Notes: generated from the letters alone by a model not told the origin. A stretch of 62,846 nt of DNA, filler included, from Chrysochromulina tobinii (GCA_001275005.1; 5 parts of 5 records of this genome joined end to end with filler, not necessarily neighbours in it); one strand, 5' to 3'; numbered from the whole stretch's first letter, positions 17,001-40,200 are shown. Translations and numbers: made by a program.

Positions 17001-20000
17001 TGGCACCGCCGGTGGTGCCTTGGGTGCAGGCGCCTTGGCTGCTGCTGACGCTGAGGAGGCGGCAGCCGAGCCAGTGGCGCCGGCGTTGGCGAGGAGAGCA
17101 CCAAGGACGGCGGCAACCGAAGACTCTGGCGGCGCATCACACGTACTCGAGAGCCTCGAGCGACCGGGGAGCGCACGTTTCTTCACACTCCCGCTCTCAG
17201 CGCGCGAGGCTGCGGACGGCGACAGGAGTGACACTGAAGGCGGCGGCGGTGCGAGAGGTCGCTTACGTGACGGTGGCGGCAGCTTGGCACGCGCCGCCCT
17301 GGCATCACTCGCCGCCTGGCCGCAGCATGCACCGCCACTGCTGCCGCCTCGGACAGCCCGCACCAGATTTGCCGCACCTGAGGCGCACACTGCCAGCGCG
17401 AGCACGTCGTCGAGGTCGACAGATGGTGACTCCTGCGAGCCAAACGCGCCAGCGCCGTCAGAGCCCTGTGAGGCTATCAGCATGGGTGGCACGATGGGCA
17501 GTGGCTGAGCCCTTGATTTCGCCCCTCCGTCTGCTCGCTCGGAGCGTTGGCCGCTCAGCGGAGGCGCGGCCGCCACAGCCCCCTTGGCCCATTCGGCTTC
17601 GGCTCGAGAGCGAGGCGCCTCGAGCCACGCCAAGGGGTTGTCCTCAGAGCTCTCGTCTGACGCCATGGCGCCCGCCGCCGCTGGCTCCGAGTCCATCCCC
17701 ATCTCGGAGGCCGCCACGGGTGGACTGTCGCACGCGACTGTCGCACTGGCGGCAGAGCGCGCGGAGGCGCGAAGGCCGCTCTGCCCTCCACTGGCCCGCC
17801 TTTGGCTGCGCCCCGCGGCAGACGAGTCCTCATGACGAGACGACGCGCGGCGAGATGAGGCGCGGTGAGACGAGCTGTCTTGTCGGGTCTCAGAGCTGCC
17901 CTGGCCCTCGCCGCTCCTCATGAGACTCTCGTGCAGGCTGTCGCAACGGTTCATACTCGCGCTGGCCGGTGTGGTCAGACCCTCGCCCACGCCCTCGCCC
18001 ACGCCCTCGCCCACGCCCTGTCCCTCGCCTGTGCCCAGCCCCTCGCCCTCACCCTCGAGTGGACTGCGGCTTGGGCTGGCACGCGCCGCAGCCGCCATCG
18101 CGCTCTGCCGAGGCTCGGGTGGCTTGAGGGTGGCTTGGGGATGCCTTGGGGGCGGGGGAGGCTCGGGCGGCTTTGGGGTGACCCTCTTGCGCTTGCGTTT
18201 GGGTGGGGGCGCCTCCCATGGCAGCTCGTCCTCATCTGGCAGAAGTGCCATCTTCGAACCGTCGTCGTCGTTATCCTCCTCCTCCTCCTCATCCTCCTCC
18301 TCCTCCTCGTCTTCGTCGTCGTCGTCGTCCCTCTCCTCCTTCTCCTCCTTGCCCTCCTCCGCTTCCTCCTCCTCCTCCTCCTCCTCCTCCTCCTCCTCTG
18401 CACGCACAAGGCAGCTGATGGGCTGCAGCGGCGGTGGCGCCTTGGCCCCCTCGGCCTCCTCAACCGCCTCCGCTACCGCCGCCTCTCCCCGCTGCCAGGT
18501 GCTCGTGGCCCCGCCATTCTCCTCGTCGCTATCAAGGTTGATCACAACAGCCGAGGATTGGACTGCCGTTGGGAGCCCTCCGGCGATGCCGCCGACGATG
18601 CCGGAGGCAGCCGCCGCCTCAGCACGGGGCGCATGTGCCGGCGTCTCGACCGCCTCGTCTCCCTCGGCTCCTAATCGCCCTGCCGCTAATCGCTCTGCCG
18701 CTGGGGTTGCCTCCGCTGGCGACGGGCAGCCCACAGCGATGTCGTACGGCGCCGACAGCTCGGAACCACCAAAGCAGCCCGTCTGCGCCTCCACCCAAAG
18801 GACGCCGTGTTGGGCAGATGCGGCGCCGCCCTCGGCTGCCTCCTCCGCCACCGCCTTCTCTGCTTCCACATCCTTCGCCTCCGCCTCCGCCTCCGCCTCC
18901 TCATCCTCGGCGATGGCACCCATGCCGGCGCCCATGCCACTAGCGACTTGGTGACTCAGGCTCAAAGACGGGCTCATGCCCGGCTGCTCGCTCGTGGGTG
19001 GTTGCTGGCTCGTTTTGAGCTGCTGGCTGGGCCGATGGCTTGGCGGCCACGAAGGGTACAGCGATGGGCCTTGCTGCCCCTCCTCCAAACCTGCAAGTTG
19101 CGCCGCCTCCGCAGCCACCGCCTCGCGCGCCGCCGCTATCACTTCGGACTCTCGCTCTGATGCCTCTGATGCCTCATGCTGCGCCCTATCTGCGCCATGA
19201 GCCAGCGCCACGCTCTCCGCCACGCTCTCCGCAAGCTCGAAGGCCGCGAGTTGCGAGGCGGGCTCCGACAGTGCCATGACGGCGGCCCCTGCCCCCGCAA
19301 GCGGCGCCGATGGCGGGTACGGCTGCGTGCATGCATTCGGAGCGTCGCCCTGGTAGCGCATCAGTGCCGCTGCGGCGTCCTCGACAGAGGTCGACGGCGG
19401 CTCGGCGGGCGCAGCTTCGTCGGCTTCGTCGGCTTCGTCCGGCTCGGCGGGCGCGGCCTGGGCTTGCACCGACTCTGAGAGCGTCGAGTCGGGCGTCGAG
19501 CCCCTGCCAAGGCCAAGCAGCATGGCCGCCTCGGACGTGCCGTGACGGGGCGTGCCGTGACGGCGCAGCGCGCCAACACCTGCCGCCGTGGACTGCTCTG
19601 AGGACCTGCCTGAGGCTGATGGCCCTCCTTCAACTGCCGGCTCTGCTTCATAGGTGGCAGGCGCCGCGTCAGTAGGTGCTGGGTAGTCCGCCGGTCCACT
19701 GCCTCGATTGCTATGGATTGCGCTTGATAGCCCTTGATGACCTCTCTCATCAGGCGTCGCGTCACTCGGTGCTGGGCCGTCCGCCGGCCCAGTGGCGTTG
19801 GGGGGCAACGGCATTGGAGGGGTGCCTTGCGTGGCTCTTGGCTTGCTCGAGGAGGGTGCCGTGGTGAGCACTTGCATGCATCGGGCTCGTGGCTTCTCGT
19901 GGCGCACGTCGTCAGGGCCAGCGGCACCGCCCTCGCTAGGCGCACCGATCTCAAGGGCGCCGGCCGCAGGGAAGGACTCGAGCGCCAGCAGAGGGAGCTG

Positions 20001-22547
20001 CGACGGCGGTGGCGGCAGTTCCAACGGCGGCGGCGGCGGCGGCGGTAGTGGCAGCAGCGGCAGCAGCGGCTCATGTTGCGTCTCACCAGCCGGATCGGGC
20101 TCGTTGATCCCCAGCTGCGTCGGCGCCGGCTCATCCTCTTCGTCCACATCCTCGTTTTCGCCGTCCACGCCCATATATGGGATCGTCTCCAATGCCATAT
20201 TTGGGTTCTCGATGGGCACCTCGAAGGCCATCGGCTCAGTGCTCGGGACGGCGCTCGGTTCCGGTGGAGCACTATCGAGCTGAGGCCAGTCTAGCGGAGG
20301 TTGGGCGCCACCCGCCATCGCCGGCGCTGCTGGCGCTGCCACGTCCGCGACGATCCCCGTAACGTCTCCAAGAGGATTTCCGAGAGGCGTTCCCATCGTC
20401 ACACCTGCCACGCTCGCCGCAGCACTCGCCGCAGCACTCGCCGCAGCACTCGCCGCGGCGCCCGCCGCGTCGTCGCCCTCGTCATCTTCCGAGCTCAGCT
20501 CATCCAGGTCCTGGGTGGAGCCCAGGCGCAGCGCCGTCGTGTCGGCAGGGCAGGCGGCCTCGTGCTCGGGACGGCGCTCGCGCTCGGTACGGTGCTCGTC
20601 CTCGTACTCTGTGGCTGAATGCGGCGCCGCGAACCGCGTATACAGATTGACAGGGCGGCCGCCCGAGGCAACGGTGGAGGCAGCACGGACAGTGGCAGAG
20701 GCGGCGGCGGCAGGAACGACGGCAACAGTGCCAGCTACGGGCGCTGCTGCGGCGGCGGCAGCGCCGGGAGCGCCCTTGGCTTCGATGGCGCCCAAGACGG
20801 CGCCTTGGGCTGCCGACGACAATTCGTCAGATTCGTCAGAGCCGCTGGCGGAAGCCGACATGCCGTTCCCACTGCGCGAGCACGGGCCCGGGTGCGATGC
20901 CCTCAATGCGACCGATGAAGGCGAGCCGCATGGGACAGGCGCATGCGCGTGCGCGTCTGCCGATGCGTGCGACGAAACATGCGACGTTGCATGCGACGAT
21001 GCATGCGACGAAACATGCGACGATGCATGCGACGAAACATGCGACGATGCATGCGACGAAACATGCGACGATGTGTGGGCGGACGGCTGCGCAGCGGACT
21101 GTGCGGAGCCGTGCACCGGGGGTCGAGCACAGGAGGGAGGCGCGGAGCCGACGGAGCCTCGGCCTGCGCCTCGGTCCGAGCAGCCCGTCGACACGCGTGG
21201 CGAGGTGGCAAGCAGACTGTCGATCTGGGAGGCAGTGCCGCCGTAGACACGCGGCTCGGAAGCGATGGCATATGGTGAGATGGAGCCCATCGGGGGAGGC
21301 TGCGACGCATCAGCACGCCGACGGTTGTTCGAGGGCGGTGAGGGCATCGCAACGGCAGCGTGTCTCAGTAACTGACTCAACCCTCCACCATCGGAGCCGG
21401 AACCGATCCTGGTACCGGTACCGGTACCCGTACCGGTACCCGTACAACCCGTGCCGGCCGCAGCGGCAGCTGCTGCCGCCGCACCTGCGATTGCCGGCGT
21501 ATGCTCGCTGGCAAATGAAGCGGCTGCGGCCACGTGGGCCGTTACGAGCTCTTGTGCCGCGCACTGCCTCGCCTCAGCCCGGCCCAAAGATTCGTCAGCC
21601 CGGCCCAACGATTCCTCTTCCTCGGTCTCGGCGTCGGCGTCATCGACAGGCGCTGGCGCCGCCGCGGCCGCCGCTCCAGAAGCTCGCACTGCCTCCGACT
21701 CCGGCTCCGACTCCGGCTCTGTCTCCGCCCCCGCCGCCGCTGCGGCCGCCGCCGCCGCCGCCTCAGCCGCCGCCTCGGCCGCCGCCGCCTCGGCCGCCGC
21801 CTCGGCCGCCGCCGCCTCCAGACCGACGTCGACTGCCGTGTAGCCGACGTCGACGACCGAGTGGCTGACGTCGAGCGTCGTGTGGCCCTCGGCTGTGTGG
21901 CCAATTTCCGTGGCTTGTCGGCCGATGTCGATCGCCGTGTGGCCGATGTCCGCTTCAGTGAACCCGAGCTCGACGGCCGTGTGCCCAAAGTCCAAGACCG
22001 TGCGCCCGCCCGCCATGCCGCTCGGGATCGGCTCGGCCTCGGTCTGGCCCACCTCGGGCTGGCTGGCTGAGAGCAGTCTGTCCGAGCGTACCACCGGAGG
22101 AGCGCCCATGCGCTGCGCTGGTGACGCCTCGTCGTCATCCGTGTCCATCCGAAGGACGTTCTCCACCAGGCTGCCGGAGCTGTTGGCGCTCGCCAGTCCG
22201 CCGGTTTCTGTCACAGTCGCATGGGCAGACACGCCACCTCGAGGCGTATCTGCAGCCGGAGCGCTGGCAGTGGCAAGGGGGCGTCCCCAGCAGTCCTGTG
22301 GAGCGAGGCCCATGGCTGAGTCCAAATGTTTGAAGTGAGTTGCATGGCCTGCGCTGCCGTCATCTTCGGGTGGCTCGGGAGTCGGGACATCAGAAGGTGC
22401 TCGTCTGTGTGGCACTGGCGGCGGCTGCTGCAGTGGATTCCGATCCGGGGATTGGGCGCTGCGCTGCTGCTGCTGCTGGTTGTCTTCAGCACGCCTGCGA
22501 CGAATGTCGCGCTCGCGCTGAGCTCGGCGCTGAGCATCACTGAACAT
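14004..22547 (-). CDS. ~2850-aa chromatin/DNA-damage mediator-like protein: disordered acidic N-terminus, chromodomain, three Tudor-knot (chromo-barrel) domains and tandem BRCT
   Basis: Chromo: YLVRWKGYGEADATWEP (~16490-16635). Three copies of GDxLxAxD..WYxxxVV..RGxG..RxxKxHFxGWxxRxDxWI (~15110-16100). Two BRCT-like repeats: FMLTGF..DRAALEATLRVAGG..TEKVLFGLAYG..LRPSWAHAS and LLSGYVI..LLRAAGA..ISQDWAKHCL. A possible small intron lies near 19830-19907. Confidence 0.85.
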   Translation of the reverse strand: MFSDAQRRAQRERDIRRRRAEDNQQQQQRSAQSPDRNPLQQPPPVPHRRAPSDVPTPEPPEDDGSAGHATHFKHLDSAMGLAPQDCWGRPLATASAPAADTPRGGVSAHATVTETGGLASANSSGSLVENVLRMDTDDDEASPAQRMGAPPVVRSDRLLSASQPEVGQTEAEPIPSGMAGGRTVLDFGHTAVELGFTEADIGHTAIDIGRQATEIGHTAEGHTTLDVSHSVVDVGYTAVDVGLEAAAAEAAAEAAAAEAAAEAAAAAAAAAAGAETEPESEPESEAVRASGAAAAAAPAPVDDADAETEEEESLGRADESLGRAEARQCAAQELVTAHVAAAASFASEHTPAIAGAAAAAAAAAGTGCTGTGTGTGTGTRIGSGSDGGGLSQLLRHAAVAMPSPPSNNRRRADASQPPPMGSISPYAIASEPRVYGGTASQIDSLLATSPRVSTGCSDRGAGRGSVGSAPPSCARPPVHGSAQSAAQPSAHTSSHVSSHASSHVSSHASSHVSSHASSHATSHVSSHASADAHAHAPVPCGSPSSVALRASHPGPCSRSGNGMSASASGSDESDELSSAAQGAVLGAIEAKGAPGAAAAAAAPVAGTVAVVPAAAASATVRAASTVASGGRPVNLYTRFAAPHSATEYEDEHRTERERRPEHEAACPADTTALRLGSTQDLDELSSEDDEGDDAAGAAASAAASAAASAAASVAGVTMGTPLGNPLGDVTGIVADVAAPAAPAMAGGAQPPLDWPQLDSAPPEPSAVPSTEPMAFEVPIENPNMALETIPYMGVDGENEDVDEEDEPAPTQLGINEPDPAGETQHEPLLPLLPLPPPPPPPLELPPPPSQLPLLALESFPAAGALEIGAPSEGGAAGPDDVRHEKPRARCMQVLTTAPSSSKPRATQGTPPMPLPPNATGPADGPAPSDATPDERGHQGLSSAIHSNRGSGPADYPAPTDAAPATYEAEPAVEGGPSASGRSSEQSTAAGVGALRRHGTPRHGTSEAAMLLGLGRGSTPDSTLSESVQAQAAPAEPDEADEADEAAPAEPPSTSVEDAAAALMRYQGDAPNACTQPYPPSAPLAGAGAAVMALSEPASQLAAFELAESVAESVALAHGADRAQHEASEASERESEVIAAAREAVAAEAAQLAGLEEGQQGPSLYPSWPPSHRPSQQLKTSQQPPTSEQPGMSPSLSLSHQVASGMGAGMGAIAEDEEAEAEAEAKDVEAEKAVAEEAAEGGAASAQHGVLWVEAQTGCFGGSELSAPYDIAVGCPSPAEATPAAERLAAGRLGAEGDEAVETPAHAPRAEAAAASGIVGGIAGGLPTAVQSSAVVINLDSDEENGGATSTWQRGEAAVAEAVEEAEGAKAPPPLQPISCLVRAEEEEEEEEEEEEAEEGKEEKEERDDDDDEDEEEEEDEEEEEDNDDDGSKMALLPDEDELPWEAPPPKRKRKRVTPKPPEPPPPPRHPQATLKPPEPRQSAMAAAARASPSRSPLEGEGEGLGTGEGQGVGEGVGEGVGEGLTTPASASMNRCDSLHESLMRSGEGQGSSETRQDSSSHRASSRRASSRHEDSSAAGRSQRRASGGQSGLRASARSAASATVACDSPPVAASEMGMDSEPAAAGAMASDESSEDNPLAWLEAPRSRAEAEWAKGAVAAAPPLSGQRSERADGGAKSRAQPLPIVPPMLIASQGSDGAGAFGSQESPSVDLDDVLALAVCASGAANLVRAVRGGSSGGACCGQAASDARAARAKLPPPSRKRPLAPPPPSVSLLSPSAASRAESGSVKKRALPGRSRLSSTCDAPPESSVAAVLGALLANAGATGSAAASSASAAAKAPAPKAPPAVPTTARAAPPPPPPPPPPPPAGSKRRAAEPSAEPTPAEAKPKRACAAKAAQVWAAAAPGARSAAAASPPDRRASRGHLSRAAARRQPPRGVCRVRQRGFVIVSDEEEEDDEEFEAEDEEEAEEAEEEFEAEALLASRLGDDGGLAYLVRWKGYGEADATWEPRANLEGGCDELLREFHAQGALDTAHASAVREEAAEARTLPGHFRGGSEEVMDLDAGAPMEAAEEEAADAAVDEEPIVPTQLEVIVATQSMAVADEEQPAAQDDASEAAADAAPAEDEEAEEVDVEQEQPTQLDASPWARTCVGDRLEARDKRGAWYLARVVALRGLGARRQVKVHFHGWSVRHDEWIALDAGRLREVGAGAAAGAEDEAGGADDEAGGDDDDAHVDAHEALYAEAAPDLAEEPAAPPAAATAPPDTMLRDGLRLGDWLQACDQQGGWYGAKVVDLRGLGVQREAKIHFHGWHKRHDVWIALNAGRLREDRSAEGAVLATALRSPEGMRSRRRSAGGTTASAARAARAARVPEEAEKEAAEAKEAKEAEDAEEEEVVGEDGEEEEGEEEDEPEPPCRVLSTEEVIALRVGTSLQARDSFSEWYDGRVVDARGIGSHREVKVHFLGWNKRFDEWIACSSGRLRQIDDEDEGDEGEEPSRPRSQSRPRSRALAETCDYGATDEAVAESPIPSDGGRSAGGRSARSRASPGGTRIALGSAGASSASGAAATAGAAATAGASSSDAAAAGACSRLFVGAAFMLTGFTDDDRAALEATLRVAGGRIVDVAREQGAGLVIVESDSESLFYDLHRLVANRKLVLLAEACAEDMPIRITEKVLFGLAYGCVPLRPSWAHASLMQNCWQPVPGEYAAKLANTNASAAAGRGGGPRSRSVDASPDRARAQAWTPLLSGYVIVPTGSDDFCAKWTPLLRAAGAEVRTDLPPQHHGARDHVSQRCLVLVEKDADEAAVRTRLERARAREVIAISQDWAKHCLLQQRVLPPTDFIFKPSSKR

Positions 22548-22737: not shown

Positions 22738-25354
22738 CTAAACAGCGCCTAGCGCCTTCATCGTGGATAGGAAGTCATCAAACGCTGCTGGCAGCGTGGT
22801 CGTCATGATAGGCGGCGGCGGCGGCGCGCACTGCTCGAGCACTCGATAGTAGCCGCGGCCCTCGGGGCCATCGCGGTGCACATAGCCCGGAAGCTTCGTC
22901 ACCTGGTCGGCGCACGCGACGAAGGCTGCCCCCGCGGCGGAGGCGCGCTGGAGGACGAGGCGCGAGTACTCGGCCGCGTCGGGCGGCGGCGCGTCGGGCC
23001 GTCGATAGTAACCGCCGCCGCCTTCGGCGAGCGCACGCGGATGGCCGTCCGACACGTACTCGTATCCCGCATAGGGGCCGACGTAATCTGCACAGCGCAC
23101 AAACTCGGCGGCCTCGGAGGCGGCCTCACGTAGGATGAGGCGAGCTGCCTCGATCGGGTCGGCCGGAGGCGGCGCGTCCAGCCGCCGGTAGAAGCCGCGC
23201 CCCTCGAGCCCGTCGAGGAAGTCATATGCATGCGCGAGGCTCGCGATCTCGTCAAGGTCACGGATGCCCGAGGGGTCCCCACACCCGATGAACGCAGCGC
23301 CAGCCTCGCTCGCGCGCACCAACACGGCGCGCGCCTGCTCGTCGGGTCGGCGCTTGGTCAGCGACGCAACCAGAGGCACTCAGAAGAGGCAATCAAGAGG
23401 CAATTAACGACACTCGCCTGCTCGTATGGGTCGGGCGGTGGCGCGCCCTCGTGCCGATAGTAGCCGGCACCGTGCGCGCCGGCGGCCGCGTACTGGTAGT
23501 GCTCGAGCTCGGCGACAAAGGCCGCGCAGCCGATAAAGGGTGCCCCTTCCGCCGAGGCAAGCCGAAGCACGCGCATCGACTCTTGGTATGCTTGCGCCAT
23601 CTCGCCGAACCCAAAGCGCTGCTGACGGCGCACATCCTCGCCCGCTGGCAACACGCGCGCCGCGCGCCCGTCGTCGAACGCCACGCTGAGCGCGCGCTCG
23701 CAGAAGAAGCGGCCGTCGAGCGCGTCGACGGCGGCGGCGGCGGAGAGCACCGACTGAAAGCGGATCGCTGCACATCCCTCTGCGGAGCTAAGGGCGTCGC
23801 CATCGAGCAGCGGCTCGATCCGCTCGACCTCGCCATATTTACAGGCCTCTTCCCACAGCTCATCGACCATGCGCGCGGCCCACACGCGCCGCGCATCGAC
23901 GGCGCTCGCCGACGGCACCTCCGACGGCAGGAACAACCGTCGTACCACTACGACGCGCAGCATGTCGCCGTCGGTCGGCGCCGTCGTGGGCACATCGCTC
24001 GGGTGGGCGAGGCGGGATGGCGCCGCCGCCACCGCCGCGCTGGAGCTCGAGCCGCCGGTGGCGGCGGCGCTGGCGCCGCTGGCTGCGGCGCTGCGCTTCG
24101 CACCGGCTGCGACCGTCTTGCCTGGCTGCGCTCGTGCACTGAGCATGGCTTGGTATTCGCACAGCCCTGGGATGCGGGTCAGTCCCGGGATGAGGCGAGG
24201 AGGCGCGGCGATGCTGCTCGCGGCTGGGGCGGGCGCGGCTGCAGCGCCTCGGAGGTCGACGAGCGCGGGCGCGGCCACCTCGAGCGGCGCGGCCGCGGAG
24301 GTCGACGACCAAGTCGTGCTGGCTGGGCCAGCCGGTCGGTCGGCGGGCGCGCCGACTGCCCCACCATTCCACACCGGTCGCGAGATGTCCACCGGCCAGC
24401 GCTGGCCAGCGCGCTGTCCCGGGCGCAGCTCGCGCCCGTTGAGCAGCTGGATGGCGCCGAGCACAGCCGCGTCCTTCTGGTACGTGACGAGCGCATCGCC
24501 CTTGGCGTTGCCCTCGGCGTCGCGGTAGAGCTTGACGCGCACGACCGGTCCAACTGCCTCCATGAGCAGCTCCAACTCTTCTGGTTGGGCGTCGTGAGGC
24601 AGACCTGACGAGGGAGGCAGTCAGACGTCATCAGAGGTCATCAGAGGTCATCAGAGGTCATCAGAGGTCATCAGAGGTCATCAGAGGTCATCAGCATCTC
24701 AATCTCTTCCGGCTGGGCGTCGTGAGGCAGACCTGATGAGGGAGGCAATCAGACGTCATCAGACGTCATCAGAGGTCATCAGAGGTCATCAGCATCTCAA
24801 TCTCTTCCGGCTGGGCGTCGTCGTGAGGCAGACCTGCGACGTAGACCGAGCACGCCGCCGCGCCGCCCGCCGCCGAGCGCTGCGTGAGACGCGAACCGTC
24901 ATCGAGCCGCGCGGCCTTGGCCGCCGGCGCGCCGTCGGCGGCTGCAGAGCCACCCTCGGCGTGAGTGGAGGACGAGGCGCTGGCCGTACTCGAAGCGGCT
25001 CTCAGGGCCGTTGTGGCCGCGCACGCGGCCGCCTTGGCTCGCGCCTTGGCTGCCTCGTGCTGCTCGGCTACATAAGCGAGGTTGCGCTTCTCAGCCGCGG
25101 CGATGCGCGCACGTTCGCGCGCGAAGAGCTCGTCGAGCGTCTTCTTGGGCGGAGGAGGCGCCATGCTGGGCGCCATGCTGGCGAGCTGCTGCTGCAACGG
25201 AGCCGCCGCGGCGCTGAAGGCGTCCGCCATCCGCTTGGCTATCTCGAGCGCCAGGCTCTGCGCATCCGCCGCGCTTCCAGGCGTCTGTGGCAGCACGTCG
25301 AAGCCGGTCTGCCGCGGCGGCTGCGGCGGCGGCGGCGGCATCATCATCATCATT

Positions 25355-27945: not shown

Positions 27946-30084
27946 TCACCCCACATGCACATTTCCATTGTTTTCGATGGCGAAAGCCGGTGCAAAGCGC
28001 AGGATGGTGCTGGGTGGCACTCCGGCGGACCTGAGCATATCGAAGCTCGACATTAAGCTCGACATTCTCAGGTCGAAGCTCGCGGGCAGCGCGATTGACG
28101 TCAACGAGGAGCAGCCAGAGAAGGCGCCATCACCGAGGCTCGTGAGGCCGGTGGGCAGCGTGATCGACGTCATCGAGGAGCAGTTCTTGAAGGCGCTCCT
28201 ACCGATGCTCGTGAGGCCGGCGGGCAGCTCGATCGACGTCAACGAGGAGCAGAGCTGGAAGGCGCACTCACCGAGGCTCGTGAGGCCTGCAGGCAGCTCG
28301 ATCGACGTCAACGAGGAGCAGCCATAGAAGGCGTGATCACCGATGCTTGTGAGGCCGGCGGGCAGCTCAATCGACGTCAACGAGCCGCAGAACTGGAAGG
28401 CGCACCCACCGATGCTCGTGAGGCCTGCGGGCAGCGCGATCGACGTCATCGAGGAGCAGTCATAGAAGGCGAACTCACCGAGGCTCGTGAGGCCGGCAGG
28501 CAGCTCGATCGACGTCATCGAGGAGCAGCCCTCGAAGGCGTGCAGACCGAGGCTTGTGAGGCCCACGGGCAGCTCGATCGACGTCAACGAGGAGCAGCCC
28601 CAGAAGGCGTACTCACCGATGCTTGTGAGGCCGGAGGGCAGCTCGATCGACGTCAACGAGGAGCAGCCCCAGAAGGCGCCCTCACCGATGCTCGTGAGGC
28701 CGGCGGGAAGCGCGATCGACGTCATCGAGGAGCAGGCCTCGAAGGCGCTCCTACCGATGCTCGTGAGGCCGGAGGGCAGCGTGATCGACGTCAACGAGGA
28801 GCAGCAATTGAAGGTGTCCTCATCGATGCTCGTGAGGCCGGCGGGCAGCTCGATCGACGTCATCGAGGAGCAGCCCCAGAAGGCCCTCTCACTGAGGCTC
28901 GTGATGCCGGCGGGCAGCTCGATCGACGTCAACGTGGAGCACTCATAGAAGGCATACTCACGGATGCTTGTGAGGCCGGCAGGCAGCTCGATTGACATCA
29001 ACGAGGAGCAACCCCAGTAGGCGCCCTCACCGATGCTCGTAAGGCCGGCGGGCAGCGCGATCGACGTCATAGACGTGTCATCGCGGAACGCGTACGCCGG
29101 CACGCGCGCCTCGCCGTCGCGCAGCACGCACGCGGCAAGCAGCACCTCCATGGGCGCCTCGCCCTCGCCGCGGATGCACGCGCGCACCCCCGCCATCGGG
29201 TACGAGCCTGCACCAGAAGACTCCACGCGCCTCAGCGCGGCCACGTCCACCTCGAAACCGCCCAGCCCTGTCACCTTTGCCAGGTTGGGCAGCCAGCGCG
29301 ACGCGTCGGCCACGTCGGCGACGAGGCGACCAGCGGCGCGGCTGTCTGAGAGGTCGAGCTCGGTCACCTCGACGAGGTTGCTCGTGAGCGGCAGGCCGAC
29401 GCGTGCGCACAGCCGCGCGCACAGGACGCGCCGCGCCCGCGCGCGCCACGCGAGGCTCACGCCCTTGAGTGCGCACAGCGTCGGTACGTCGGCGTCCGCG
29501 AGGGCGTCCTCGAGGGCGTCCTCGTTGACGAGCTGCGTCGAGAGCCAGCATGCGGGCGCTGGCGGTGTGGGTGCGTCGGCCGCTCGCGGTGCAGTGGCGT
29601 CGTGCTGAGCGTCGTGCGTGTAAATCGGCTCCTCCGTCGCCGCCTGCCGCTCCGCCTCGGTGGGGAAGTCGCTCACGACGCCCAGCAGCCACCCGAGCTC
29701 CGGGCCACTCTTGCCAGCGAGGTGGCCGGTGCACAGGGAATGCGAGAGAAGGCGGCGCAGCTCGACGTCCACGTCGAGAAAGTGCGCGCCGTGCAACAGC
29801 TGCGCGAGGTGCGTGAGCGAGCACCCCTCCAGCGCCCCGCCGCCATCCTCCGCACCGCCTTCGGCGACGCGCGAGAGCGTGCGGAGCGCAGCCGCAGGCA
29901 CCAGAGTGGCGAACGCCCCCTCGGCGCCGCCCGTGTCGCTCACCCAGTTGGCGAGCGCCGCCGATCGCGCCGCGGCCGAACGGGGCCACGCGACCTCCTC
30001 GCCCTCGACGCTTCGCATCCTTACTTTGCCGTCGTCGCCGTCGCCGCCGATGACGTCGCCGCCGCCGACGGACCTCCCCGACAT
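27946..30084 (-). CDS. SKP1-like domain + F-box + BspA-type (LRR_5) leucine-rich repeat protein, intronless
   Basis: SKP1-like: VRMRSVEGE...LAQLLHGAHFLDV..L...L.GKSGPELGWLLGVVSDFPTEAE. F-box-like: LVNEDALEDALADADVPTLCALKGVSLAWRARA. Then 14 full 23-aa repeats of SSLTSIELPAGLTSIGxxAFxxC. Confidence 0.88.
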   Translation of the reverse strand: MSGRSVGGGDVIGGDGDDGKVRMRSVEGEEVAWPRSAAARSAALANWVSDTGGAEGAFATLVPAAALRTLSRVAEGGAEDGGGALEGCSLTHLAQLLHGAHFLDVDVELRRLLSHSLCTGHLAGKSGPELGWLLGVVSDFPTEAERQAATEEPIYTHDAQHDATAPRAADAPTPPAPACWLSTQLVNEDALEDALADADVPTLCALKGVSLAWRARARRVLCARLCARVGLPLTSNLVEVTELDLSDSRAAGRLVADVADASRWLPNLAKVTGLGGFEVDVAALRRVESSGAGSYPMAGVRACIRGEGEAPMEVLLAACVLRDGEARVPAYAFRDDTSMTSIALPAGLTSIGEGAYWGCSSLMSIELPAGLTSIREYAFYECSTLTSIELPAGITSLSERAFWGCSSMTSIELPAGLTSIDEDTFNCCSSLTSITLPSGLTSIGRSAFEACSSMTSIALPAGLTSIGEGAFWGCSSLTSIELPSGLTSIGEYAFWGCSSLTSIELPVGLTSLGLHAFEGCSSMTSIELPAGLTSLGEFAFYDCSSMTSIALPAGLTSIGGCAFQFCGSLTSIELPAGLTSIGDHAFYGCSSLTSIELPAGLTSLGECAFQLCSSLTSIELPAGLTSIGRSAFKNCSSMTSITLPTGLTSLGDGAFSGCSSLTSIALPASFDLRMSSLMSSFDMLRSAGVPPSTILRFAPAFAIENNGNVHVG
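28082..29075 (-). repeat. Coding tandem array of 69-nt LRR units (14 full plus a partial unit)
   Basis: Recurrent CTCGTGAGGCCGGCGGGCAGCTCGATCGACGTCA.CGAGGAGCAG with a 69-nt period. Confidence 0.95.
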
Positions 30085-30241
30085 GTTTTCGGTGGAAAAG
30101 TATAAACCCTTTCCGGATATCCAATTTGAGGAAGGGAGAGGGCGGAGCAGGGGGCCATGTACATAAGTTGTTGAGGCTACATGCCATGTGTGCTTGTCTT
30201 GCCTTGCAGGACTCTTGCCGTCAAGAATTGCAGGTGTCCTT

Positions 30242-30818
30242 ATGGAAGGGCGCGTCCTTCGGCGAGCTGCTCACCTGCTCGGCCTCGGCCTTCTCGCTGG
30301 CGCGCACGCCTCGACGATGCGCGTACTGCTGCCCGACGGCCGCAACCTCACGCTGCCTGCCACGCATACGGCCTCGTCGCCGGCGCTCCCGGCGCTCTCT
30401 CCGATGGCTGCGCCGCTAGCGCTGCTCTTTGCGGGCGACGCGTGCGCGCCGCTCGCTCCCGACGTGCCGCGCCCCGCGATCGGCGGCTTCGTGCTCTTCG
30501 CACGCCGCGGCGGCTGCGTCTTCGACGTCAAAATGCAGACGGCGATGGCCGCAGGTGCGGCTGCGCTCGTGGTCGGCGACACTCTTGCAGCCGAGTATGC
30601 GGCTCTGTCGGATGCGACCGCGCAGTCGGCGGCGCTCACGAACCCGTGCATCGTGAGCTGCACGGTCGGCCGTGGCGTGGTCGACGCGAGCACCCTCTCG
30701 CTCGCCGACGTACTCGGCGGCTTGCCCAGCTCCTGCCCCGCTCCCGCCGAGTATACGGGCCGCCGCTGCCCAACGAACCTCTGCGCCTTTTCGGGCCACG
30801 CGCCCAATGGCAGCGGCA

Positions 30819-30849
<31 letters not shown>

Positions 30850-33800
30850 CAGCAGCGGTGGAGCTGGCGCCCAAGCCCCTCTATCTGCCCCTCCACCTAC
30901 CCTGCGAGAGGTGTGCTGTGTGCTCGACTCGCTGGGCTGGTCGTCTTGCATGCAAGTGCTCACCACGGCGCCGCGACTCCCCCACAGGTGTGCTGTGTGC
31001 TCGACTCGCCCGCCTTCGAGATGTCGCTGCCCAACACGAGCGGAGCAGGCCATTCAACTGCCGTACCTGCCCTCTACCTGCCCCTCGCCCTGGGCCAACT
31101 CCTCGAGGCTCAGTGCGACCCGCACGCGCGGGCCACGTCACCGCACGCGCGTGCCACGTCACCGCACGCTCGGGCCACGTCACCGCACGCGCGTGCCACG
31201 TCATCAGTCGGCGGCGGCACGGCGACGCCCGGCACGGCGGATCACGGCATGGCACCGGCACTGTCGGCTTGCTCCGCGCTGTTGTATGAGGAGGAGGTAC
31301 CGGTAGGCCACGGCCGTTGGGATTCGTCAGCGCCGCTCATCTGGCTGCTCGCTACTAGGTGCGATGCCCGCTGATGACATCTGATGACATCTGATGACAT
31401 CTGATTACGTCTACGAGGTGCGATGCCCGCTGATGATATCTGATGACATCTGATGACACCTGATGACATCTGATTACGCTTGAGTGCATGCAAATGCTCA
31501 CCACGGCGCTGGCTCCCTCCCCACAGTACCGCCGCCCTCGCCTCGTACCTCGCAGCCCGGGCGCAAGACCAACAGGACAAGCAGGTGTGATGCCCGCTGA
31601 TGACATCCGATGACATCTGATGACATCCGATGACATCGGATTACATCTGAGTGCATCCGAGTGCATGCAAGTGGCGCAAGACCTACAGGTCAAGCAGGCG
31701 CTTGGCGGGACCGCTCGGCGGCGCATGCGAGTGCTCACGACGACGCCCCACGCTCTCCGTTTCCCCACAGGTGGCGCTTGGCGGGACGTCGCTGCGCCAG
31801 GCCGACGTCGACGCCTCGACCCTCGACGCATCGACCGCGATCGGCTTCCTGGTGGGCGTCCGCCCTCCTGATTGCGTCTGATTGCGTCTGATTGCGACTG
31901 ATTGCGATCGGCTTCCTGGTGATGGCGTCCACCTTCTTGAGGATCCTCCTCAGCATGCAAGTGCTCACCACGGCGCCTTGTCCCCACAGGTCATGGCGTC
32001 CACCTTCTTGATGATCCTCTTCTTTCTCGTGCGGGCCGGCTTCAACATCGTGCTGGTGAGCATTGATCTCCCTTGATCTCCCTTGATCGTGCGGGCCGGC
32101 TTCAACATCGTGCTGGTGAGCATTGATCTCCCTTGATCTCCCTTGATCTCCCTTGATCTCCCTTGATCGTGCGGGCCGGCTTCAACATCGTGCTGGTGCT
32201 GCTCAACCCCATGCTCGTCGAGTGCATGCACGTGCTCACCACGGCGCCGTTCCCCCACAGGTGCTGCTCAACGCCATGTTCGTCTTCGCCTCCTCCACCG
32301 CCACCGGGCAGCTGCTCATCGTGCCCGCGCTCACCACGGCGCTCGAGGCGGTTGGGCCTCGGGGCTCCGCCGCATCATACGTGAGCGTGCCCTTCTGCGC
32401 CGACCTGGACAACCTTTGCAGCCCCGGCCGTCTGTCCGTCGTCATGCTGGTAGGCGGTGGCCTCGCGCTGAGCGCTTCGGTGGGCTGGTTCCTCCATCGG
32501 CATGATGAGTGGATGTGGCTGCTCCAGGTGCGTCTGATTGCATCTGAATGGCGTCTGATTGCGTCATGATTGCGTCTGAATGGCGTCGGATGGCGTGATT
32601 GCGTCTGAATGTATCTGAATGGTGTCTGATTGCGTCTGATGGCGTCTGATGGCCTCTGATGGCCTCTGATGGCCCTCTGATTGCGTCTGATTGCCCTGAC
32701 GGAAGTGGATGTGGGCCGCTCCAGGACGCGTTCTCGATGGCGATCTCCCTTGATCTCCCTTGATCTCCCTTGATCTCCATTGATCTCCCTTGCTCCAGGA
32801 CGCGTTCTCGATGGCGATCTGCTGCTTGTTCGTGCGCACGGTGCGCCTACCGTCGCTCAAGGTCGGCACTCTCTTCCTTGGCATGATGTTCTTCTACGAC
32901 GTGTTCATGGTCTTCATTTCGCCCTTGCTGTTCCACGGAGAGTCCGTGATGATGACGGTCGCCACCGCCGGCGAGCCCACGGCGGCTGTCGAGCATGATA
33001 CCGGTCAGTGCACCCTGCTCCAAGTGCCTCTTGATGGACTCTCTGAGTGCACCTGATGAGCTTGCATGCACAGGCAAGTGCATCCGGACCGAGGGCGAGA
33101 CGATGCCGATGCTCATGCTCATCCCCCGCCTGAATCCCTTCCAAGAGGACCTCCTCGATCGCGTCTTCTCGCCGGCACCGCCCCCCCCGCCGCCGCCACC
33201 CCCGGGCACCCCGGACGTTTCGGGCTTGTGGTTTCGTCTCTCCGGCGCTCCGGGCTCCTTTGCCATGATTGGGCTCGGCGACATTGTACGCGTGCCCTCC
33301 TTGATGGCCACTGATTTCAATGATTGGGCTCGGCGACATTGCACGCATGCGTCCGAGCAGCCCTCCCATCCATATTAGGTGCTTCATGATTGCTTCTGAG
33401 TGCTTCTCTGATGGCCGCTCGGATTTATTGGATTACGTCCCTTCCATATTAGGTGCTTCCGGCGCTCGCCATCGCCTACGGCCGCCGCATCGACCTCTAC
33501 CGCGCAGCCGCTGGTCGGCCTGGTAGTGTTTCCTTATTAGACAAGGTGTCCTCGTGCTGCTCCTTTGGCTACTTTGGCTGGTCGGTCACCGGTTACGGTC
33601 TGGGCCTCGCAGTCACGCTCGCCGCCAATGCGTATGGGTGGACCTTTAATGGTGTCCAAGGGCAGCCTGCACTCCTGTACGTCATTGCTACTGATTGCCT
33701 TTGATGGCCATTGATTGCCACACATTAAAGGTCCGCGCTTTGATGGACTGCCTGCACTCCGGTTCGTCAGCACGGTCGTGGGCTTCTCGCGGCAGGCAAG

Positions 33801-34056
33801 TGCTCGCGGCATGCAAGTGCTCACCACAGCGCGCGCGCCCTCTTCACGCCCTCTTCACAGGTACCTCGTGCCCGGAGTGCTCGGGGCGTTACTACTGCGC
33901 TCGTGGCTGCGCTCGGAGATGAGCGCTATGTGGACAGGGAGTGCGGTCCCACCCGCGACGCTGGAGGACGAGAGTCACTCAGAGCTGTGCTCTTATCAAG
34001 AGCCGAGCTCTGGGTACAGCCCCACCTCCTCCACCTCCGCCTCCCAAGTCAACTGA
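30242..34056 (+). CDS. Signal peptide peptidase-like (SPPL2-type, A22B) aspartic protease with a PA domain. At least 9 introns: 30911-30987, 31359-31526, 31585-31770, 31852-31989, 32056-32260, 32528-32798, 33004-33073, 33286-33452, 33677-33860
   Basis: Signal peptide and PA motif (RRGGCVFDVKMQTA). After manual splicing, catalytic FFYDVFMVF, GLGDI|VLPAL and QGQPAL|LYLVP are all in frame. Confidence 0.9.
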
Positions 34057-35157
34057 GCTCCGAATCTCCCGCGTGCACCTCGCGATCTCCCGCGTGCACG
34101 TCGGTGCCGATCTCGCGCAGACCTCGCGCCGACCTTCATCGCTGTTTTGGGGTCCCACGGCTGTTTTGGGTCCCGAGGGGTCTCACCAGGAGAGGGCGCC
34201 TCTGAGGGCGCCGTCGTGGGCGTGGGCGGAGACCACGCACGGGCAGGGGGAGGCTCCTGGTCCGCTCGCGCCCACGACGGCGCCCCAGAGGAGCTCCTGG
34301 TCGACGTGCTGGCTGCTGCTGAAATCGGTCTCGCGAGCTCCCATGCCGCCCACGAGCGGCGACAAGTGCCACGTGACCTGGCGAGTGGCGTGGTCCGGAG
34401 TTGTAACTTTATCTTTAACTTGCGTTGCGTGTCGGATCGACGCTTCTCGCAACCTCGTTCAGGTTCACGGCACCGAACCCCTCCACATGCTACAGGCGGG
34501 CGTACGCGCGGGTCCCCAACGCGCAACGGCGTCGCATATGGGGGTATCGCATATGTTGCGTCGCCGTTCTGCCCAACGGCGCGTCCACCCATATGGGCAG
34601 CCGCCCATATGGGGGTATGCGACGCGACGTGTAACCCCGGCCGCGCGATACACATATGCGACACGCGTGGCCAGGATGTGGCCACCCGACACTCACATAC
34701 TGACCGCGTACACACCGGAGACTCAATCTGAGCGCATTAACGCACGGGGTCCAGTCGCGGGCCGATCCGCGGCGTAGTCGGGCCCCGCGCTCGGTGCGCT
34801 CGGCTCACACTACGTACTCACAACGAGACACACCACACAGGTCACAGCGCTACAACCATTTCTGCCGGGCGCCGGGACCGGGCACCCGCGGCCATTTCCA
34901 ACAGCATGCTGTAGCCTGCACAGCTCCGGAGCCATAAGCCATGCATGCAATAGCCTGCACAGCTCCGGAGCCATATCCTTGCCCTCGAGTCCATTCGTCG
35001 CGAATCTCGGGGCTATCTCTCCATCAGAGGTCCAAGATTCGTCAGCGCGAATCTCGGGGCTATCTCTCCATCAGAGAGTCCGCGTCCGGCGACGCGGGCC
35101 CACTGGCACGTAACGGGAATCTCGGGGCTATCTTTCCGTCCGAGAGTCCGAGATTCG

Positions 35158-37083
<1,926 letters not shown>

Positions 37084-37298: not shown

Positions 37299-40200
37299 TT
37301 ATTTCACTTTCATAATAGGCTGCATCCCACGGCTCACCCTCAGCGTGACCTTCGTCCCTTCGACGAGCAGAATGAGCGGGTCTTCGCTCTCCTCAGGATC
37401 GGCGGCGCCGTGCGACTGGTCGAGCGGCGCACAGAAGACGCCAAAGTGGAGGCGTGAGCGTACCCGATGGTGGCGGGCGAGCGCGCGCAGCACCGTGCCA
37501 TGTTTGGCTCCTGAGGTGGGATCGATTTCGACCATGGCGCACCTGAGGGAAAAGGCGCTGTGGTGAGCATATGCATGCAAGGCAGCCCGTCGGAAGCGTT
37601 ACAGGATCGATTTCGACCATGGCGCACCGCGCGCACGCGCTCGTCACCCGGAGTACAACCCTGCCATCGGCCAGCACGATCTCCGGCACGATCTCCGGGC
37701 GTCGGCCGGGCGTAGCAAGGGCGTCGTGGGCCTCGGCGCCATAGGGTGGGGACGCACTACTCCCATCTTCGGCCTCCTTACTCATCTCGGCGCTCTCGGC
37801 GCTCAAAACGGCGCTCGACCCATCTTCCGCCTCCGCCTCGTCCACCTCAAAAGGCTCGAGCGCCGGCTCGGGCGCCGGCTCGAGGGCCGTGTGCAATCCC
37901 TCGCCGTCGAGCACCAGATTCGGCCGAAAGTGGCGCGCGCTCACCGGGGCATGCCCCACCGCCCGGAGCGACGCGTTCAGCGCTTCCACAGCCGAGTGGG
38001 CGAGCACAAGCAATGGCGCTTCGTTGGCAAAGGCGACGCGGGCAGCACTCGCCTCCTCGATCTGGCTCGTCGAGGCCGCGCTGTGGTGAGCACTCGCATG
38101 CTCCTCGTCGTCACATGGTGCGTCCCTCGTCGCCAGCGGAGACCTGGGGGTTGCACCTGCCGCCATTTGCCGTCGAGGAGCAACTGTCGAGCTGACGCAG
38201 TGCCGGACGAGGCGGCACTGGACTTTGAGTGCCTCCGAGAGCCACTGCGAGACGAGTGCGCCGCCGCAGTCGACGGCGTCACAGTCTTTGCCACACACGT
38301 TGAGCGAGCTGCTCGTCTGCGGACGACTCCCAACGCCCAGCGGCAGCACCAGCGGTGGCCCGCTGCCCATCCGCAGCGTCAGGCGCACAGCGCGCTGCTC
38401 CTGATCTAGCTCGAGGCTGGGCACGAGCAGCGCGAGCATCGGGTACGTTTCGAGTCGCATGACCCTTCCCCCCCCATCAACCAACGCCCACTCGCGATCG
38501 TACAGCAGCTTGGCCGAGCGCCGATGCATCCACCAGCGCGGCACACACATCGCCGGGCAGCTCTTGATCGGGTACACGTAGATGGCGCGCAGGGTGGGCG
38601 CCGTGGTGGGCGCCTTGGCGGCGAGCAGCGAGCGTGCGGGCGCGGGCGAGGATGGCGCCGTGGTGGGCGCCACGAACGCAGACTGCAAGAAGGTGATCAA
38701 GGCGTCCACATCTTCCCACAACGAGTCCTTCCCTAGCGAAGCACGCACCACGCCCGTCGGATGGCCGTCGAAGAAATCCATGGCATCGCCACATTGCTTG
38801 CCCGACGCGGCCGCCGCACGCACCTGCGCATCAGTCAGCCCCAGCACGCTCTGGCAGCCGCCCGGATTACAACAGCAGCCGCCCCGCAACTGAATGGGCG
38901 GCCCGTGCAGCGCCGCCAGCTTCGTCACCTCCGCGTACCCCACCAGCTCCCCAGACTGACGGCGCACGTTGAACGCGACTGTTGGCCCGCTGGTCGGGCC
39001 CTCCACGCTCGTGCGGTCGCCCACCACGGCGCGCTCGGAGCCCACCACGGCGCGTTCACCCACCACGGCGCGTTCGCCCACCACGGCGCGTTCGCGCGCC
39101 GCGGCGCCGTCGGCCGCCAGGGCGGCGCGGGCCGCATGGCGGCCGTAGAGGACGATGGCCGCGCTGCCGTCGGCATGCCGTAGGGCGCGAAGCCGCTCGA
39201 TGAGCTCGGAAGTGAGTGCCGCTGTGTGGGCCGCGATGGCATGCATGCCGCCGAGCTGCTCTATGGCCTCAAAGCCCGCAGGGACGGCGAGGGCTCCGCG
39301 GAAGTGCATCGTGCCATGTGCGAGGGCCTCGACGGCCGTTGGCTTTGGCGTGTGCTCGTTGTGCGCGGCGAGCACGCTCGAGACGGATCCACCTGTGGGG
39401 AAGGGGAAGGGGGGCGCCGTGGTGAGCACATGCATGCTTGTTGGGCGCCGTGGTGAGCACATGCATGCTGGCGGGAGGGTCTCGAGCACGGACCCACCTC
39501 CGAAGTAGCCGGCACCGTCTCGACGCAGGCGCGCTGCGAGGTCCCTGCGCACGAGGAGTGCACCCAATCCCGTAGGCTCCCCGAAGAGCTTGTACAGTGA
39601 CACGCACGCCATGGCCGCGCCGGTGGACGGCAGGTGCACCGGCGCGCTCGCGGCTGCCTTGGAAGCATCGAGCAGCACCCAGTACCGATCGGCGATGCCG
39701 CCGCACAGCATCTGCTCGCGCGTCATCTGCTCGAGGAGCCGCGCGGGCAAATCGGCGTCGGTAGGTCGGTCGCCGGTGAGGTTGCACTCCGCAGGCAGCA
39801 CGATGAGATGATCCACACCGTGCTCGACACTCCCCTCGACACTCGCCTCCAAGGATGGCGCCGGGGCAGCCAGCAATTGCCTCGACACAGCGCTCGACAC
39901 AGCGCCATACACAGCGTCATTCACAGCGTCATTCACAGCGGCGAGCCCAGCGAGCGCTTCGAGTGAGTCGAGTGACACGCAACGGCACTGGGCGCTGGCC
40001 GCCGCTGCAGGTACACGCATCCCAAGCACCGACGTGTGCGCGTTCATCGTGTACGCAAAGAGCGAGCGGCCGCAGCGCGAGAAGGGAAAGGTCTCTGCAG
40101 CAATGCGCAGAGCCGTCGTCGCGCCTGAGGTCCAGATGAGCTCCCATTCATTCGCACGCGCGCCGCAAAAGTGCTGGAGGACGCACCGACGTGCGCGCTC

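Follow-up and report, generated by a model that had tools for sequence, protein, structure and literature searches.

Introns of a Chrysochromulina SPPL2-like gene carry copies of their own exon-exon junctions, likely left by stepwise intron gain

Four introns of an SPPL2-like signal peptide peptidase gene from a freshwater Chrysochromulina-type haptophyte alga each contain a copy of their own spliced exon-exon junction. These introns are real, spliced and probably young. The copy likely represents the original boundary between exon and young intron, which a second insertion then enclosed. We put at about 60% the probability that two insertions, of an acceptor piece and a donor piece, each with a 15-33-nt duplication of flanking exon sequence, took place, the copying being done by microhomology-guided template switching during DNA repair or replication.

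Results

Junction copies in four SPPL introns

The window, the 62,846-nt stretch of DNA analysed here, consists of five contigs joined by N linkers. The SPPL gene lies on the contig at 27362-40702 and spans 30242-34056 on the plus strand, as delimited by Pfam matches, the protein P0015 and RNA contigs; its product has a PA domain and a Peptidase_A22B domain (Pfam). There are ten exons (30242-30910, 30988-31358, 31527-31584, 31771-31851, 31990-32055, 32261-32527, 32799-33003, 33074-33285, 33453-33676 and 33861-34056), with the first two introns placed only by reading frame and likeness to P0005 and P0026. Two single-exon proteins of the window fall in the same 90% clusters as Chrysochromulina parva records. 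Of the further assemblies, L002 and L003, the latter is similar to the window over 28073-37083 only and has other genes on both sides (L003:1-5800 and 14900-20371), either because the haplotypes differ in structure or because the assembly is misjoined at repeats. We also noted a 69-nt repeat in 14 copies at 28082-29069, which presumably codes for leucine-rich repeats on the minus strand, and long frames with reverse-transcriptase-like words at 57522-62846, which we take to be possibly a DIRS-type retroelement.

In what follows, X is the end of the upstream exon, Y the start of the downstream exon, X' and Y' their intronic copies, and i1-i4 the four SPPL introns with junction copies, all on the plus strand. 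The initial annotation had proposed four GT..AG introns here, each with a junction copy; the introns and the copies, which are 39-52 nt long, were found where it had placed them, and in all four X'Y' reads as mRNA. Intron i1 (31585-31770), seen in DNA contigs and as an RNA assembly bubble, consists of a donor with TGATGACATC-type satellite, X', Y' and an acceptor module. Its junction copy (31673-31711; X' 31673-31697, Y' 31698-31711) lacks the first 3 nt of Y, and has 2/25 mismatches in X' and 0/14 in Y' on either side of this 3-nt gap. Intron i2 (31852-31989) begins with a diverged copy of Y that serves as the donor (31852-31872), followed by satellite, X' (31904-31918, 0/15 mismatches), Y' (31919-31951, 3/33) and an acceptor module (31953-31989). 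Intron i3 (32056-32260) has a donor with satellite, an extra 60-nt unit of exon end plus donor (X copy at 32088-32115) that L002 lacks, X' (32168-32195, 0/28), Y' (32196-32219, 2/24) and an acceptor module (32224-32260). Intron i4 (32528-32798) has a donor with satellite, X' (32704-32724, 21 nt aligned with 20 nt, differing by one inserted and one substituted nucleotide), Y' (32725-32746, 0/22) and a second satellite, and its last 7 nt are the end of the upstream exon. X' of i4 resembles a former acceptor, as its terminal AG lies downstream of a branch-like word.

The donor half of i1 (31585-31664, plus strand) is identical at 69/80 nt to the second unit of the neighbouring intron iA (31359-31526, plus strand), in which no exon copy was found at the 30-nt test. 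The match runs from the GT into the start of an acceptor motif and, as judged from sequence likeness, iA is the likely source of this half. The i1 donor half is not among the very abundant repeats, since its summed contig depth is about 210, against 12,000-35,000 for the satellite bins of i2-i4. This match, the Y copy at the start of i2 and the extra unit of i3 had been overlooked in the initial annotation.

Locally aligned with their own 60-nt spliced junctions, i1-i4 scored 60, 80, 96 and 74, respectively. These scores were matched by 1, 0, 0 and 0 of 5000 pieces drawn from the window at distances above 1.5 kb and by 0/5000 junction shuffles (best 29-31), and alignments with the other three junctions gave 11-18. 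All four scores lie far above these controls. The copies also recur outside the assembly of the window. Logan DNA contigs from two runs, the better of which may be the window's own source, are identical to it over 31376-31896 and 32169-32653, stretches that include the i1 and i3 copies. All four copies are present in L003, those of i1-i3 are present in L002, which is a different allele with several differences, and the i3 copy is translated in P0058, from another contig. Given this recurrence in DNA contigs, L002, L003 and P0058, we rejected misassembly as their origin.

Splicing of i1-i4 was assessed from the arithmetic of RNA contig pieces and from proteins, and both RNA contigs and transcript-like proteins bear out the proposed boundaries. 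Record 16 of RNA run X17 has 649 nt between 32519 and 33861, equal to the exon sum 8+205+212+224, and departs from the genome at the i3 acceptor. The proteins P0001 and P0015 continue across the junctions of i2, i3 and i4. Record 10 of run X12 extends over 31558-31797. These are the ends that the unspliced arm of an assembly bubble would have if i1 were also spliced at 31585-31770. The unspliced i1 contig in X12 has a depth of 7.5, compared to 10.8 for its spliced neighbours, and retention or DNA in the library is possible. Retained introns have 1-6 in-frame stops, so for the main transcript we rejected the view that the copies are exons or alternative exons. The internal AG of i4, if used, would add 74 nt, and minor use of the copies as alternative exon sequence may occur.

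One-sided forms and the acceptor module

We looked for X or Y copies in 17 introns from five genes of the window and one gene of L003, a set chosen by motif, satellite or reading frame, with two members entering partly through their repeats; the non-SPPL introns are predicted, with boundaries taken from sequence. A copy at p<=0.01 was found in 12/17 introns (10/15 without the two noticed through repeats). The five without an X or Y copy included iA, i5 and a kinase intron, which carry satellites or the motif, and a control intron, plain1, was entered one base off and is counted as a miss among the 17.

The acceptor module has a 23-nt branch-site core and a C-rich tail ending in CAG, is 36-52 nt long and is non-exonic. 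The core is common to 11 modules, whose tails and 5´ halves differ, and the 3´ end is fixed while the 5´ edge is ragged. The motif has 11 matches in the window, 11/11 in sense to their open frame. Nine of them fall in eight introns, six of which hold a Y copy at p<=0.01; in three of these six (30911, 37627 and 39497), the Y copy is the donor itself. The exon duplications vary in length from 14 to 45 nt.

In the SPPL gene, the 77-nt intron at 30911-30987 (plus strand) consists of an exact 22-nt copy of the downstream exon, used as donor, and then an acceptor module. It is single in the window and present as three head-to-tail, complete GT..AG units in L003 (L003:8596-8826), a difference due either to a collapsed repeat or to an allele; the three units have the form of stacked introns with zero-length exons. 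Two introns of the same one-sided form are predicted on the minus strand in a gene that, from its motifs, we take to be ABA3/Moco-sulfurase-like: 37543-37627, with an exact 24-nt downstream-exon copy as donor and an acceptor module, and 39393-39497, with a downstream-exon copy of about 16 nt and a doubled acceptor module. The sulfurase-like gene also has a copy of the acceptor motif in an in-frame, 93-nt GT..AG stretch at 38062-38154 (minus strand), which RNA contigs of both runs cross unspliced; this is either an exonised module or an unspliced intron. In an RRM-protein gene, a predicted intron at 24605-24833 (minus strand) has a downstream-exon copy of about 45 nt, satellite and an acceptor; the whole unit is doubled (period 98) and is Y-first, without the acceptor motif. 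The mirror form is predicted at 23335-23417 (minus strand), where a GC donor and satellite are followed by an upstream-exon copy that supplies the AG, and a second case of donor, satellite and X', again with the AG from X', is found at L003:3631-3699. Finally, a module core lies at 19857-19879 (minus strand) in an open frame of 2896 codons, flanked by direct repeats of 16/17 nt that match imperfectly.

Acceptor modules of neighbouring introns were not clearly more alike than those of distant ones (the best pair being ABA3a with L001), which points to a dispersed source for the acceptor half; a local source is not supported by this comparison. When viral and prokaryote collections were scanned with motif and satellite, the module was found at one contig end only (L001). 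This contig is phage-like and ends in haptophyte-type sequence with an acceptor module (L001:4380-4554), an end that is probably chimeric. Five other motif or satellite matches in phage- or bacteria-like DNA were taken as chance.

Downstream in the SPPL gene, i6 (33286-33452, plus strand) contains 21 nt copied from the upstream exon and, after them, a degenerate copy of the intron start, with its own 3´ boundary repeated, and i7 (33677-33860, plus strand) has an 11-nt upstream-exon copy and an acceptor module. An exon-end-plus-donor unit is also present in i4 of L002. Exon end plus intron start is thus copied in i3, i6 and L002 i4, and these copies required an unspliced template, as spliced RNA cannot template them. 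The intron at 33004-33073 is longer in the relatives P0002 and P0011 through tandem doubling of its interior, and introns at L003:16780-17070 (minus strand) and L003:2990-3170 have three or four copies of the exon end or of their own start.

Relatives with and without i2 and i3

Nine ENA proteins (P0013, P0014, P0016-P0018, P0020, P0021, P0023 and P0024), out of 15 listed from a P0001 cluster of 19, continue into i4 but pass the position of i3 without interruption; i3 is apparently absent from these predicted proteins. P0016-P0018 start inside i1 and read across the positions of both i2 and i3 (on contigs of up to 2.1, 6.5 and 13 kb). In the P0046 cluster, with 15 of 49 members listed, 12 proteins start at the exon after i3, two start later and one has the i3 copy. 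The distant relatives P0005, P0006 and P0009 align through the intron positions without insertion, P0006 covering i2-i4 only; they appear to be genomic, since elsewhere they continue into unrelated sequence. A metagenome scan with P0016, covering 48 of 64 parts, found at least two loci, both intron-bearing, and a search for near-length proteins gave one further cluster.

These predicted proteins indicate near-identical strains without i3, some also without i2, and three more distant lineages without an intron at these positions. The simplest reading would be recent gain, with i2 and i3 still segregating. Loss by recombination between repeats could give the same pattern of presence and absence, and partly spliced transcripts might lie behind some of the read-through proteins. 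At the i2 position, P0020 opens with a satellite-like peptide that joins straight onto the final three codons of X and a complete Y; it is possibly a donor-only state or a chimeric contig. We also noted that one codon of the i1 copy encodes H in strains of the P0016 type but L in both the window and L002, in each case as in its own exon. At this single site, the agreement suggests that copy and exon exchanged variants after the strains split.

A two-step construction and its alternatives

The copies, both one-sided forms, the genomic boundary duplications and the allele differences in unit number, all directly visible, are the starting point for the history that we propose. In a first step, a short piece of another intron would enter an intronless exon at a G/GT-type site (slashes mark exon-intron boundaries), and 15-45 nt of the exon beside the insertion site would be duplicated. 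Insertion of an acceptor module would give X/Y'-acceptor/Y, where the duplicated exon start is the donor; insertion of a donor plus satellite would give X/donor-X'/Y, where the duplicated exon end is the acceptor. In a second step, the same process on the other side would supply the missing dedicated splice signal, with X'Y' staying in the middle. As X and Y' are adjacent in DNA once X/Y'-acceptor/Y exists, a second event that duplicates X would leave X'Y' without any mRNA. Two insertions, each with a long one-sided duplication, give every form seen. The acceptor would have come first in i2 and i3, and probably in i1, and the donor first in i4. The divergence between halves in i2, i3 and i4 runs in the direction predicted by this order (reversed in i4), with counts too small for significance singly, and i1 shows no clear asymmetry.

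The copying would most likely be template switching, with an adjoining intron of the gene frequently serving as the source and either DNA or unspliced RNA as the template. Short words shared at the switch points, as read by eye, are TGAT, GCGA and GATCT, and switching at such words is, on balance, our favoured explanation for the exact splice ends, the donor borrowed from a neighbour and the unstable unit numbers. The initial annotation had offered two routes, insertion of a donor and an acceptor module, each with exon duplication, or writing of the junction back into the intron from mRNA or cDNA. The one-sided forms, the half divergence in i2-i4 and the read-through that points to young positions support the first, while the second is not needed and fits i2 poorly.

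The same two-step history could instead have involved retro-insertion of the pieces, with a non-LTR reverse transcriptase priming at a staggered nick and copying intron RNA or a short mobile acceptor element. Variable-length target duplications mark target-primed reverse transcription, and the duplications here vary between 14 and 45 nt; of the features expected of a non-LTR insertion, variable duplication and a ragged 5´ edge are present and a constant tail is absent. With its fixed 3´ end and ragged 5´ edge, its lack of neighbour bias and its 11/11 sense matches, one of which sits in a long ORF and is flanked by direct repeats, the acceptor module, dispersed and in sense orientation, is accounted for by retro-insertion as well as or better than by template switching. 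However, there is no poly(A) or constant tail, and the acceptor tails differ beyond the 23-nt core. Moreover, the exon-end-plus-donor tandem units and the allelic changes in unit number look like DNA slippage, and the sense bias is also predicted by selection. Overall, we consider retro-insertion unlikely.

If instead a break in an existing intron had been mended from the gene's own cDNA or mRNA, as in RNA-templated repair with partial intron loss, the spliced junction would be written in directly. The mRNA-like reading of X'Y' in all four introns fits such a patch, as does the one i1 site at which the copy follows its own exon in the window (L) and in P0016-type strains (H), and RNA-templated break repair is reported for human cells (PMC12065846). 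However, a patch requires a pre-existing intron, and relatives appear to have none at these positions. The diagnostic case is i2, i1, i3 and i4 not being informative here. Across 30 nt inside i2 of L002 there are 0/30 mismatches to exon end plus intron start and 2/30 to the mRNA junction, so that it is the genomic boundary that the copy follows. At +3, the i2 copies of both alleles share the intron-start base, and mRNA write-back fits poorly because the copy has the intron-start variant and not the exon variant. Against our reading, the window copy agrees with the exon at one site where the L002 copy agrees with the intron start. In addition, 0/4 copies span two junctions despite exons of only 58-81 nt (a weak point, as the copies are short), and the copies of exon end plus intron start need an unspliced template anyway. 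We regard the patch as quite improbable, and the SPPL introns offer no evidence for RNA-templated repair.

Plain tandem duplication or triplication of a proto-splice-site segment, with satellites and acceptor motif added later by slippage and conversion, corresponds to the model of Rogers, in which introns are gained by tandem genomic duplication (as outlined in PMC3296678 and PMC3087553). Here too, splice signals come from duplicated exon around a proto-splice site, i2 has the order X Y''-X' Y'-Y, i4 ends in the last 7 nt of the upstream exon, and tandem units are frequent at these loci. Plain duplication, however, yields the order Y'X' without foreign DNA, whereas the introns have X'Y' with foreign modules between the repeats, including, in unrelated genes, the non-exonic 36-52-nt module with its common 23-nt core. 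We therefore consider plain duplication highly improbable.

Introners, reviewed in PMC11282704, make fixed 3-9-bp target duplications and recruit one splice site from the duplication, according to sections of PMC9860276 and bioRxiv 10.1101/2020.10.14.339549. Site-recruiting families are given there for Aureococcus, Symbiodinium, Polarella and marine Chrysochromulina, and one family in marine Chrysochromulina MAGs carries the 5´ site and has a 4-bp duplication (PMC9860276, same sections). The likeness is that the inserted piece bears one splice site and the duplicated exon the other, in both polarities: the donor is recruited from the duplication at 30911, 37627, 39497 and 24833, and the acceptor at 23335 and L003:3631-3699. 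Double insertion of a conventional Introner, a non-autonomous DNA transposon that donates one splice site with the other coming from the target-site duplication, is nevertheless the least probable reading, even with Introners in marine Chrysochromulina MAGs and an acceptor core that forms a repeated family, as the duplications are 14-45 nt and variable rather than fixed at 3-9 bp, terminal inverted repeats, which part of the Introner families have, are absent (4-7 of 15 end matches in five introns), the introns lack similarity over their full length, the two polarities occur stacked at a single junction, and C. tobinii appears with 0 Introner families in a 2025 survey (PMC12130899, supplement file 7). 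By the features tested, the SPPL introns are not Introner introns. Replitrons were dropped, a single C. tobinii locus without link to introns being mentioned in the portion available of PMC10288648.

Discussion

Two other systems share ingredients with the introns described here. In Daphnia pulex neointrons, direct repeats of 4-12 bp are shared with the exon (33 cases), the neointrons are polymorphic in the species, and repeated bouts of repair add internal repeats (55/90), according to PMC4202315. As in those neointrons, the end of the adjacent exon is repeated directly at the far end of the intron, and a direct repeat of adjacent exon sequence bracketing inserted DNA was found in 12/17 of our introns, where it is longer than 4-12 bp. 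By contrast with Daphnia, the repeats here are 14-45 nt, both sides are duplicated in turn, the acceptor module recurs and a donor half matches a neighbour. Amphioxus mirages are minisatellites of exon-intron boundaries, proposed in PMC3087553 as a route to intron gain. Tandem copies of the 5´ or 3´ boundary, with a number that is unstable between haplotypes and no effect on splicing, are the likeness, which applies to the extra units and not to the X'Y' copy: such repeats of unstable number occur in i3 (window compared to L002), in L002 i4 and at 30911 (1 compared to 3). However, mirages repeat the boundary of an existing intron, whereas here the introns themselves appear young, and the SPPL boundary copy, unlike a mirage, reads exon-exon, since the intron started out from a duplicated piece of exon.

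The view that this architecture is undescribed thus stands for the exact two-sided layout in the literature searched and gives way for its ingredients, namely the repeats of Daphnia neointrons, the co-option of splice sites by Introners and the mirages. Among titles and abstracts, with sparse coverage of subscription journals, we found none that describes the two-sided layout or these Chrysochromulina introns, and, in the text consulted, the C. tobin genome paper (PMC4580454) mentions introns once and does not describe this layout. The gain of i1-i4 would be of the duplication or repair type, with an exact layout that appears to be new.

How spliceosomal introns can originate without transposons is a long-standing question, as the origin of a young intron is seldom visible in its sequence. 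In this case, the pieces used, the two half-built states and the completed form all lie within a single 30-kb stretch, and two introns seem to be segregating among nearly identical strains in a cultured group of algae with public genomes. If i2 and i3 are truly absent from close relatives, intron birth would be observable within one species group, and rates, step order, selection on donor strength and precise loss would be measurable in principle. The listing of 0 Introner families for C. tobinii in the 2025 survey (PMC12130899) suggests that screens for whole-intron similarity miss a class of gains. More tentatively, freshwater Chrysochromulina may build introns from a kit, in which donor and acceptor halves are copied from introns into exons with long duplication and the crude intron is later upgraded. 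Such a process might be active now, invisible to Introner screens and reversible via the repeats, with intronic copies and exons swapping variants, and if this is true, the exchange of variants between intronic copies and exons can change the protein.
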